From assembly GCF_003018235.1 (NCBI RefSeq), contig NZ_CP027437.1: DNA of 64,000 bases. One strand, 5' to 3'. A model generated the notes under the pieces. That model was not told the origin of the DNA and ran no database searches. It saw nothing but the letters and a program-made list of their open reading frames with translations. Shown here in pieces: positions 20,938 to 22,611 of the stretch. Every line of letters starts with the position of its first letter. Positions within the stretch are counted from its first letter, which is position 1. The stretch comes from Escherichia coli (GTDB lineage Bacteria; Pseudomonadota; Gammaproteobacteria; Enterobacterales; Enterobacteriaceae). A program made the position numbers and the translations under genes.

Positions 20938-22611
20938 ATGAATATAAAGACGATTAACGTCAGCCTTTTGTCTTTTTCTATTATTACAGCATTGTTTCCG
21001 TTGAACGCGTTGGCAACAAAATTAACCATTGAGCAGCGCCTTGAACTGCTTGAAAATGAATTGTCGCAAAATAAACAAGAGCTGAGAGCAACACAGAATG
21101 AACTGGGGGTATATAAATCCCGACTTTCGACCTTACAAAAAAGTATTACGGAAAATAAATACAAATCAGCCTCACTTGCTGAAATATCAGCGACATCTCC
21201 CGTCGCTGATAACATCAAAAATGAAAACGGTGAACAGAACTCGTCTGCCGCAGCGCATACTATAAATGGATCGCAGCAAGTTGCCGTTATTGAAAGTAAA
21301 GGCGACAAAACCACTATCGAAAGCGTGACCCTGAAAGATATCAGTAAATATATAAAGGATGATATTGGGTTCAGCTATCAGGGGTACTTCCGCTCAGGCT
21401 GGGGTACCGGAAATCATGGCTCACCACAAACTTATGCAGCGGGTTCTCTGGGACGTTTTGGTAACGAGATGAGCGGTTGGTTTGACTTAACCTTAAATCA
21501 GCGTGTTTATAATCAGGACGGTAAAACGGCAAATGCGGTCGTTACCTATGATGGCAACGTAGGTGAGCAGTATAACGATGCCTGGTTTGGTGACAGTGCC
21601 AATGAAAATATCATGCAGTTCAGTGATATTTATCTGACAACGCGAGGTTTTTTACCCTTCGCGCCAGAGGCAGACTTCTGGGTAGGCAAACATAAACTCC
21701 CGCAATATGAGATCCAAATGCTGGACTGGAAAACCTTAACCACGGATGTCGCTGCGGGTGTGGGGATTGAAAACTGGGCACTTGGTGTAGGGCTGTTTGA
21801 TATGTCCTTAAGCCGTGATGATGTCGATGTTTACTCTCGTGATTTTACGCGTACCAGTCAGATGAATACCAATTCTGTGGATGTTCGTTATCGCAATATC
21901 CCGTTATGGGATGATGCAACATTATCATTAATGGCTAAATATTCCGCACCAAATAAAACGGATCAACAACAAGATAATGAAAATGACGACAGTTATTTTG
22001 AAATGAAAGATAGCTGGATGCTGACTTCTGTTTTACGGCAAAACCTGCAACGCGATACGTTTAATGAATTTACGTTACAGGTTGCCAATAATTCCTATGC
22101 CAGCAGTTTTGCCAGTTTCTCAGATGCCAGTAACACGATGGCGCATGGTCGCTATTACTATGGTGACCATACCAATGGGATCGCCTGGCGTTTAATCTCT
22201 CAGGGCGAGATGTATCTTACTGACAATATTATTATGGCTAACGCGCTTGTCTATTCTCATGGCGAAGATGTTTATAGTTATGAAAGTGGCGCTCATAGTG
22301 ATTTTGACAGTATTCGCACCGTAGTAAGACCGGCCTGGATCTGGAATACATGGAATCAGACGGGGCTTGAATTAGGCTGGTTTAAGCAACAGAACAAAAC
22401 ACAGCAGGGTGTAACACTAAATGAATCGGCTTATAAAACGACACTCTGGCATGCATTGAAAGTGGGTGAAAGCATTTTAGGTTCACGACCAGAAATTCGC
22501 TTCTATGGAACGTATATCAATATTCTGGATAACGAATTATCGAATTTTAAGTTTAATGAGAACAGCAAAGACGAGTTTATGGCCGGCATCCAGGCGGAAG
22601 TCTGGTGGTAA
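20938..22611 (+). CDS. LamB/ScrY-family sugar-specific outer-membrane porin with an N-terminal coiled-coil extension
   Basis: Signal peptide, then a heptad-like coiled-coil ([30 protein letters not shown]), then a barrel with LamB-like motifs ([11 protein letters not shown]-terminal ...AEVWW). Confidence 0.8.

Follow-up and report, generated by a model that had tools for sequence, protein, structure and literature searches.

The open reading frame studied here lies within an island of six genes that RefSeq places between eamA and marB, in a 64,000-nucleotide stretch of Escherichia coli DNA (hereafter the window). The island comprises a GntR regulator, the EIIB, EIIC and EIIA components of a PTS, a porin and a phospho-beta-glucosidase (Table 1). 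The initial annotation had put the porin gene between those for EIIA and the glucosidase, and Pfam, NCBIfam and RefSeq all agree with this placement, giving the order EIIB-EIIC-EIIA-porin-GH1 phospho-beta-glucosidase with the GntR regulator divergent. RefSeq labels the porin "carbohydrate porin", and for both L001 and CFT073 it has a "GntR family transcriptional regulator" at the corresponding position. The start of EIIC was taken from the RefSeq annotation of L001, and the protein scores 339 bits on the NCBIfam lacE subfamily model TIGR00410 (cutoff 236). The inverted repeat in the spacer between EIIA and the porin folds as RNA with an energy of -20.3 kcal/mol (z = -3.08), and AAGGA, at 20928-20932 on its 3' side, is the ribosome-binding site of the porin. 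The palindrome downstream of the glucosidase is possibly the stem of a bidirectional terminator; it received no call in the terminator scan, and scans of the locus for consensus promoters and terminators returned no more sites than shuffled sequence. Of 5426 complete E. coli genomes, 2494, or about half, contain at least 80% of a 6.5-kb query spanning the island. An exact-sequence look-up found the porin sequence itself on at least 1000 public contigs, and orthologues of identical 557-aa architecture occur in Citrobacter, Salmonella enterica subsp. salamae, Enterobacter and Kluyvera.

Table 1. Genes and sequence features of the PTS-porin island, in window coordinates.
Feature	Position	Strand	Description	Basis
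GntR/UTRA-family regulator (bgcR-type)	17898..18596	-	232 aa, divergent	Pfam GntR + UTRA
Regulator-EIIB intergenic control region	18597..18794	.	divergent; presumed bgc promoter	gene arrangement and literature
PTS EIIB, lactose/cellobiose family (bgcE-type)	18795..19106	+	103 aa	Pfam PTS_IIB 5.7e-19, NCBIfam, RefSeq
PTS EIIC, lactose/cellobiose family (bgcF-type)	19221..20543	+	440 aa	Pfam PTS_EIIC 8.4e-46
PTS EIIA, lactose/cellobiose family (bgcI-type)	20571..20882	+	103 aa	Pfam PTS_IIA 5.2e-31, RefSeq
Inverted repeat in EIIA-porin spacer	20886..20913	+	perfect 10-bp repeat (11 pairs folded) in 55-bp spacer; no U-tract after it	
Porin ORF	20938..22611	+	intact, 557 aa, ATG start	
Porin signal peptide	20938..21015	+	residues 1-26	sequence reading and alignment to BglH, ScrY, LamB
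Periplasmic N-terminal coiled-coil segment (predicted)	21022..21153	+	residues 29-72, six heptads	Pfam, heptad statistics, conservation, AF2
Linker and short helix entering barrel	21154..21369	+	linker residues 73-~131, then helix 132-142	AF2 and orthologue identity
LamB-family beta-barrel	21370..22611	+	18 strands, residues 145-557, plus stop codon	Pfam, PDB profile search, AF2, Foldseek, channel-residue mapping
GH1 6-phospho-beta-glucosidase (bgcA-type)	22636..23985	+	449 aa	NCBIfam PRK09589
Palindrome between convergent glucosidase and marB	24013..24034	.	22 bp	sequence reading

The porin is built of four successive parts: a signal peptide, a helix of six heptads, a linker of about 60 residues predicted with low confidence, and an 18-strand barrel of the LamB family. 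The signal peptide was read by eye from the sequence, with K4, a hydrophobic core and A-L-A ahead of T27. The C-terminus reads IQAEVWW, in which AEVWW (residues 553-557) constitutes the aromatic beta-signal, and at both ends the protein aligns with LamB, ScrY and BglH. The LamB-type barrel that had been claimed for this protein is well supported: Pfam LamB (PF02264) matches residues 147-557 over its whole 378-position model (E 8.9e-82, 276.5 bits vs a cutoff of 25.1), AF2 predicts 18 long strands across residues 145-556 with a block-mean pLDDT above 90 in nearly all of them, and the best Foldseek matches in the PDB are the maltoporins and ScrY (1MPR, 1MAL and 1A0T, target TM-scores 0.76-0.79). 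Two short strands (257-259 and 264-267) are placed by AF2 in the loop-3 region, as a prediction rather than a solved structure. A family profile run against the PDB recovered LamB (1e-113) and ScrY (3e-44); the profile was needed because a single-sequence phmmer search of PDB chains gave no porin, only insignificant matches to coiled coils (tropomyosin and a designed coiled coil).

Residues of the channel were mapped by alignment. Four of the six members of the LamB greasy slide (Y6, Y41, W74, F227, W358 and W420) align to aromatics in the porin, namely Y150, W181, F375 and W556; in this alignment-based mapping, W74 falls on D214, with W216 two residues off, and W358 on L514. The strings quoted in the initial annotation, a 10-residue signature at 149-158, the terminal AEVWW and a 40-residue stretch at 29-68, are all present. 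The LamB signatures among them are genuine but turn out to be family-wide motifs, and Y150, R152 and the terminal aromatic, aligning to LamB Y6, R8 and W420, are kept in nearly every family member aligned. At the constriction, K265 occupies the position of LamB Y118, where all nine BglH-like sequences aligned have a lysine, and Q256 and T268 lie at LamB R109 and D121, where BglH has K237 and R249. The same alignment reproduces the equivalences between LamB and ScrY at the constriction, R109/N192, Y118/D201 and D121/F204 in mature numbering, which were reportedly given by Forst et al. in 1998.

The initial annotation had also described a ScrY-like coiled coil of about 60 residues after the signal peptide, and had named structure prediction and coiled-coil prediction as checks. 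The likeness to ScrY holds, and so does the heptad repeat, but the length of the repeat is about 42-44 residues (six heptads) rather than about 60. Sugarporin_N (PF11471) matches porin residues 30-56 (29.2 bits, cutoff 25.7), and scores 40.7 bits in ScrY and 45.6 bits in BglH. The a positions of the porin heptads are L35, L42, L49, L56, L63 and I70, and the d positions I31, L38, N45, T52, Y59 and L66. The best 42-residue window has L, I, V or M at 9 of 12 a/d positions, a count reached in 10 of the 2000 shuffled versions of residues 27-146. Conservation follows the same register: across 110 distinct orthologues, the d and a columns vary least, with entropies of 0.27 and 0.48 bit, the e and g columns come next (0.49 and 0.69), and the b, c and f columns vary most (1.0-1.66). 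This heptad-periodic conservation is the classic pattern of a coiled coil. In addition to the 18-strand barrel, the AF2 monomer shows a single helix at residues 31-72, the block-mean pLDDT dropping from about 86-88 to about 72 along its length.

Between helix and barrel lies a stretch that was absent from the initial annotation, a linker of about 60 residues (74-135) with pLDDT below 50, followed by a helix at 132-142. The linker, rich in Ser, Ala, Asn and Glu, is predicted to be disordered. Mean pairwise identity among the orthologues is 0.59 in the linker vs 0.88 in the conserved pre-barrel helix. The core of the coil contains three strictly invariant polar residues, N45, T52 and Y59, and N45 and T52, as polar residues of the d layer, would suit a trimer. 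By analogy with ScrY, three such helices would be expected to associate in parallel as a coiled coil, the model obtained here being of a monomer only. For ScrY, PMC6173795, citing Dumas et al. (2000), describes a trimeric coiled coil located in the periplasm.

Comparison with characterised sugar porins places the protein in the ScrY/BglH branch of the LamB family. BglH (YieC) of E. coli K-12 is 53% identical to it over the whole length, in an alignment unbroken from residue 20 to 557, and has the same Sugarporin_N and LamB domains. The two proteins have in common an LT(V/I)EQRLELLE motif near the N-terminus, the pre-barrel sequence TLKD(F/I)SK(F/Y)(V/I)KD(E/D)IGFSY and the lysine at the position of LamB Y118, and BglH is likewise encoded in a PTS beta-glucoside operon (bglGFBH). 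BglH is nevertheless a paralogue at another locus, where the PTS is of the EIIBCA type (BglF) and control is by antitermination, whereas the locus in the window has a split PTS of the Lac/cellobiose family and a GntR regulator. The heptad region of BglH is also visibly shorter than that of the porin, and its linker is shorter by about 20 residues. ScrY of the pUR400-type scr regulon (PDB 1A0S/1A0T) also has an 18-strand LamB-family barrel (Foldseek target TM-score 0.79), a Sugarporin_N coiled-coil extension and a gene within a PTS sugar operon (scrK-Y-A-B-R). However, ScrY is only about 23% identical to the porin, its substrate is sucrose, its extension spans about 75 mature residues (precursor 23-96) vs about 120, and its constriction residues are N/D/F vs Q/K/T. 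The ScrY sequence compared here is that of a plasmid scr operon, which a ScrY query matched at 100%; another candidate from the plasmid collection proved to be a truncated piece of lamB next to blaCTX-M-14 and was set aside. LamB (PDB 1MAL/1AF6) belongs to the same Pfam family and has the same fold as the porin, and shares its GY.RSG first strand and terminal WW. D116 and the equivalents of R8 and R33 are conserved as well, and the alignment suggests the same for most of the greasy slide. LamB is 22-24% identical, has no N-terminal periplasmic extension and differs at Y118, R109 and D121, all replaced in the porin; the operon to which lamB is linked encodes an ABC transporter rather than a PTS.

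These comparisons leave little of the novelty that the initial annotation had implied for the combination of barrel and coil. ScrY is itself a LamB-family barrel, and Sugarporin_N with LamB is a curated Pfam architecture found in ScrY, K-12 BglH and this porin. Nor is location within a PTS operon a special feature; it is the rule for the porin subfamily, as in scrK-Y-A-B-R and bglGFBH.

The identity of the locus is indicated by its counterpart in CFT073, where marB and eamA flank the same set of six genes, with a porin 98% identical to the one in the window. The CFT073 genes c1955-c1960 have been listed as a six-gene block, "PTS system, cellobiose specific" (PMC2831201). In PMC3585215, bgc is described as a system for the use of cellobiose, arbutin and salicin that acts at low temperature and has BgcR as a positive regulator, and the gene content and order found here fit that description. 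Gene composition, order and insertion site are the same in CFT073, and the porin shows no substantial difference; the glucosidase allele in the window differs by a deletion of 30 residues. We take c1955-c1960 of CFT073 to be bgc, and the name given to its porin in the 2009 bgc paper is reportedly BgcH. In that work (Appl Environ Microbiol 75:2284), Neelakanta, Sankar and Schnetz reportedly found bgc (bgcR, bgcEFIHA) to be cryptic, with activating promoter mutations required for beta-glucoside-positive growth. On account of the gene content, the CFT073 locus and what the 2009 abstract reportedly states, we identify the open reading frame, with a probability of about 90%, as BgcH, a sugar porin of the outer membrane that is encoded in the accessory E. 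coli bgc PTS operon and belongs to the ScrY/BglH branch of the LamB family.

In this strain, the glucosidase has 449 aa vs 479 aa elsewhere, owing to a 90-bp in-frame deletion at 23851/23852 seen in a DNA alignment to L001, and at the deletion site one copy of a 13-bp direct repeat, GGGAAATGAAAAA, is retained (23852-23864). The 30 residues missing (407-436) include the conserved GYTPWG segment, and the match to the 6-phospho-beta-glucosidase subfamily model PRK09589, although strong (937 bits vs a cutoff of 624), is split in two stretches. The deletion probably inactivates the enzyme. It is repeat-mediated and rare, the exact deleted allele being found by look-up on only 26 contigs vs at least 1000 for the porin, and it illustrates how a cryptic sugar system continues to decay. 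The locus in the window could be a decaying and effectively non-functional remnant, in which the porin ORF is intact but has no current role, as the pathway cannot run. The deletion, the rarity of the allele and the cryptic state reported for the operon in 2009 all point this way. Against it, the other five genes are full length, with boundaries identical to those annotated by RefSeq, and the deletion appears to be recent because the glucosidase is otherwise 100% identical at the protein level to the intact allele. E. coli also has further phospho-beta-glucosidases, BglA, BglB and AscB, which could complement the loss. We consider the remnant explanation a serious one, with a chance only somewhat short of even, and it is compatible with, rather than exclusive of, identification as BgcH. 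Given that the operon has been described as cryptic and that its glucosidase carries a deletion, the porin may rarely be of physiological weight in this strain.

A second possibility concerns the substrate. A porin of the same family might serve another beta-linked oligosaccharide, such as mannobiose or glucomannan fragments, chitobiose or gentiobiose. The PTS components match models at the subfamily level only, EIIC falling short of the equivalog cutoffs for cellobiose (339 vs 434) and chitobiose (282 vs 760), and the two constriction positions Q256 and T268 are unlike their BglH counterparts. The GntR regulator, moreover, resembles GmuR of the B. subtilis glucomannan operon, according to PMC3585215. 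However, that same text assigns the use of cellobiose, arbutin and salicin to bgc, the glucosidase lies far above the cutoff of its 6-phospho-beta-glucosidase subfamily model, and BglH, the nearest paralogue to have been characterised, is given as an aryl-beta-glucoside-specific porin in PMC2646131, on the authority of Andersen, Rak and Benz (1999). These points make a different substrate unlikely. Finally, a recent chimera, in which a LamB barrel and a ScrY coiled coil were fused into a new architecture, has only the superficial point in its favour that LamB lacks the extension, and is refuted by the unbroken homology to BglH, the 557-aa orthologues in other genera, the pairing of the curated N-terminal Pfam family with LamB in ScrY, BglH and several 50%-identity clusters, and a barrel with BglH-clade rather than LamB signatures (K at LamB Y118 in nine of nine sequences).

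As BgcH, the protein likely functions in the facilitated diffusion of cellobiose and aryl-beta-glucosides through the outer membrane, feeding the PTS, a substrate range that we infer from the operon. The substrate-specific outer-membrane uptake coupled to PTS import that had been proposed for it is in keeping with the evidence here and the literature on its closest relatives, provided that "coupled" is taken to mean co-regulated rather than physically connected. By analogy with its relatives, the precursor would be exported via Sec and its signal peptide cleaved after A26, and the C-terminal aromatic signal would direct the BAM machinery to insert the protein as a barrel of 18 strands, presumably in a trimer. 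Cellobiose, arbutin and salicin would then move down their gradient along a putative aromatic greasy slide formed by Y150, W181, F375 and W556 and pass a loop-3 constriction of BglH type, with K265 in the place of LamB Y118. On the periplasmic side, three N-terminal helices (residues ~29-72) would associate in a ScrY-like parallel trimeric coiled coil, held on a flexible tether of about 60 residues, which may serve to hold the trimer together, to tune sugar binding, or both. EIIB, EIIC and EIIA would import and phosphorylate the sugar for cleavage by the GH1 phospho-beta-glucosidase, a final step that is probably broken in this strain.

The role of the coiled coil is only loosely defined in the ScrY/BglH porin subfamily, ScrY included. 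A much more speculative idea, to which we would give very little weight, is that the unusually long extension of the BgcH/BglH clade, some 120 residues made up of a six-heptad coil and a tether of about 60 residues, docks onto peptidoglycan or onto the cognate PTS EIIC across the periplasm. If this were true, beta-glucosides would be physically channelled across the envelope and the extension would be more than a trimer clamp. The porin itself is already known, and its architecture is of the textbook ScrY/BglH type. Outside its correct annotation, the gene is of little consequence; it belongs to a known accessory beta-glucoside operon that sets many E. coli lineages apart from K-12.

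The initial annotation accurately described the porin as regards its ORF, barrel, coil and gene order, and the families of the neighbouring genes, together with RefSeq, bore out the placement of its gene between EIIA and the glucosidase. The RefSeq annotation also places this set of six genes between eamA and marB and labels the porin 'carbohydrate porin'. The window is E. coli chromosome, in which dgcZ, ydeE and eamA flank the island at one end and marBAR, marC and ydeA at the other end. E. coli K-12 is not known to carry this island. Of 5426 complete E. coli genomes, 2494 cover at least 80% of the 6.5-kb query that spans the island, and nearly all of the rest match only part of it; the identical porin sequence occurs on at least 1000 public contigs, and 557-aa orthologues with 75-83% identity are found in Citrobacter, Salmonella enterica subsp. 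salamae, Enterobacter and Kluyvera. The gene composition matches that of the bgc operon, whose fifth gene reportedly encodes the porin BgcH and which was reportedly found to be common in phylogroup B2 (Neelakanta et al. 2009). CFT073 has the identical six-gene arrangement at the same site, with a porin 98% identical to this one, and PMC2831201 lists its block of six genes, c1955-c1960, under 'PTS system, cellobiose specific'. According to a passage of PMC3585215, the bgc operon comprises BgcR, an activator of the GntR type, and five further genes, among them those for IIB, IIC, IIA and the phospho-beta-glucosidase BgcA.

Features of the bgc-type island, its porin and its surroundings (nucleotides of the window, or porin residues where stated)
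Feature	Position	Strand	Remarks
GntR/UTRA regulator	17898..18596	-	divergent
EIIB	18795..19106	+
EIIC	19221..20543	+
EIIA	20571..20882	+
Inverted repeat	20886-20913		perfect 10-bp, TTTCCTCCAG-N8-CTGGAGGAAA; EIIA-porin spacer
Porin ORF	20938..22611	+	557 codons, ATG start
Porin signal peptide	residues 1-26		K4, hydrophobic core, A-L-A before T27
Porin heptad repeat	residues ~29-72		heptad statistics, orthologue conservation, AlphaFold2 helix
Porin linker	residues 74-135		Ser/Ala/Asn/Glu-rich, pLDDT <50
Porin pre-barrel helix	residues 132-142		conserved segment running into barrel
Porin barrel	residues 145-556		AlphaFold2, Pfam LamB, family profile, Foldseek
GH1 6-phospho-beta-glucosidase	22636..23985	+
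Glucosidase deletion junction	23851/23852		retained 13-bp repeat copy 23852-23864
22-bp palindrome	24013-24034		CAGGCTCTGTGATCAGAGCCTG; between convergent glucosidase and marB
Intact 371-aa ORF	27372..28487	-	between ydeA and LysR-type regulator

A ribosome-binding site, AAGGA, lies 6 nt 5' of the porin ATG, and the signal peptide aligns with those of BglH (the K-12 bgl-operon porin), ScrY (sucrose porin) and LamB (maltoporin). The strings originally quoted from the protein were all recovered: residues 149-158 are the 10-residue LamB signature, residues 553-557 are AEVWW, and the heptad stretch of 40 residues spans 29-68. The repeat has L35, L42, L49, L56, L63 and I70 at its a positions and I31, L38, N45, T52, Y59 and L66 at its d positions; L, I, V or M fill 9 of the 12 core positions in the best 42-residue stretch; when the N-terminal 120 residues were shuffled 2000 times, only 10 shuffles did as well. 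Across 110 distinct orthologues of full length, with identities of 75-98.6%, the d positions have a mean column entropy of 0.27 bit and the a positions one of 0.48, followed by e (0.49), g (0.69) and then b, c and f (1.0-1.66). Of the polar residues in the core, N45 and Y59 never vary, and T52 differs in a single orthologue. This evolutionary conservation is stronger evidence for the repeat than the shuffle statistics. The AlphaFold2 model, built with a 42-sequence alignment, has one helix at residues 31-72, with block-mean pLDDT dropping along its length from about 86-88 to about 72. Since heptad statistics, a/d conservation and the predicted helix agree, the proposed coiled coil is real, its length being about 44 residues instead of the 60 claimed. 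The linker that follows, absent from the first description, has a mean pairwise identity of only 59% among orthologues. Pfam PF11471 (Sugarporin_N, 'Maltoporin periplasmic N-terminal extension') matches residues 30-56 above its gathering score.

Structure prediction gave both the barrel and the N-terminal helix, the former as 18 long strands with block-mean pLDDT above 90 in nearly all. The Pfam LamB match has an E-value of 8.9e-82, the family profile reaches the solved structures of LamB (1e-113) and ScrY (3e-44), and the first-ranked Foldseek matches are maltoporins and ScrY (target TM-scores 0.76-0.79). We mapped LamB channel residues through a 16-sequence alignment, which is validated by its recovery of the LamB-to-ScrY equivalences R109/N192, Y118/D201 and D121/F204 (mature numbering) that Forst et al. 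reportedly gave in 1998. LamB Y6, Y41, F227 and W420 align to porin Y150, W181, F375 and W556, W74 to D214 (with W216 close by) and W358 to L514, while the LamB Y118 position is a lysine in all nine BglH-like sequences aligned (K265 here). By this mapping the barrel is of the BglH clade and not specifically 'LamB-type'. BglH, the closest characterised paralogue, is 53% identical from residue 20 through the last residue, has the same Sugarporin_N plus LamB architecture and shares the LT(I/V)EQRLELLE motif and the pre-barrel segment; this end-to-end identity and the BglH-clade barrel rule out a chimera. The bona fide ScrY of a plasmid scrK-Y-A-B-R operon has the same architecture at only about 23% identity, and LamB is 22-24% identical. 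The sole difference from the ScrY/BglH kind is a coil and tether somewhat longer than in either.

Five of the six island genes, the porin gene among them, are full length. The glucosidase gene is 90 bp shorter than in every other genome inspected (all listed matches), through an in-frame deletion that lies between copies of a 13-bp direct repeat, GGGAAATGAAAAA, which occurs twice. Residues 407-436 are missing, the rest being 100% identical to the intact 479-aa protein. Because the lost segment contains GYTPWG, a conserved GH1 stretch near the glycone/phosphate pocket, the 449-aa enzyme is probably inactive. Its exact allele is found on 26 public contigs, while the adjoining porin sequence is found on at least 1000, and is thus a minor, lineage-specific one.

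Porin and glucosidase (20938-22608 and 22636-23982) are mixed in one 90%-identity protein cluster of 14,022 members, apparently because some assemblies have fused ORFs (e.g. 630-749 aa with PF02264, PF11471 and PF00232), which probably arise over the 24-bp spacer through altered stop codons, frameshifts or misassembly. The inverted repeat upstream of the porin begins 4 nt past the EIIA stop codon, folds as RNA at -20.3 kcal/mol (z = -3.1) and is followed by no U-tract; it may act as a hairpin in mRNA stabilisation or processing, or as an attenuator setting the ratio of PTS genes to porin and glucosidase. The palindrome beyond the glucosidase is a candidate bidirectional terminator stem, at which a simple terminator scan made no call. 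The position of the 371-aa ORF is taken in CFT073 by just a partial 'yneK' pseudogene of 102 bp, so the status of this gene differs among strains. Elsewhere, a truncated maltoporin fragment lies directly 3' of ISEcp1-blaCTX-M-14 on many IncF plasmids (NZ_CP094341.1, 4926-6002), presumably a remnant of a chromosomal lamB neighbourhood mobilised with the beta-lactamase gene.

The working scheme for the porin is most likely the one derived from homology. After Sec export and BAM insertion, a trimer of 18-strand barrels would allow facilitated, saturable diffusion of beta-glucosides along an aromatic slide and through a BglH-type constriction; BglH is reported to be specific for aryl-beta-glucoside uptake in a passage of PMC2646131 citing Andersen, Rak and Benz 1999. 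The three N-terminal helices would form a periplasmic parallel coiled coil, by likeness to that reported for ScrY (a passage of PMC6173795 citing Dumas et al. 2000), and may stabilise the trimer and/or modulate sugar binding. The Lac/cellobiose-family PTS would phosphorylate and import the sugar for hydrolysis by the GH1 enzyme. It is highly improbable that the long coil on its tether touches a partner in the inner membrane or the cell wall to give trans-envelope channelling. The original functional inference, substrate-specific outer-membrane uptake coupled to PTS import, is sound, with 'coupling' to be read as co-transcription and not as a physical link. The porin itself is a known protein that annotation pipelines label routinely, with the architecture that defines the ScrY/BglH subfamily.
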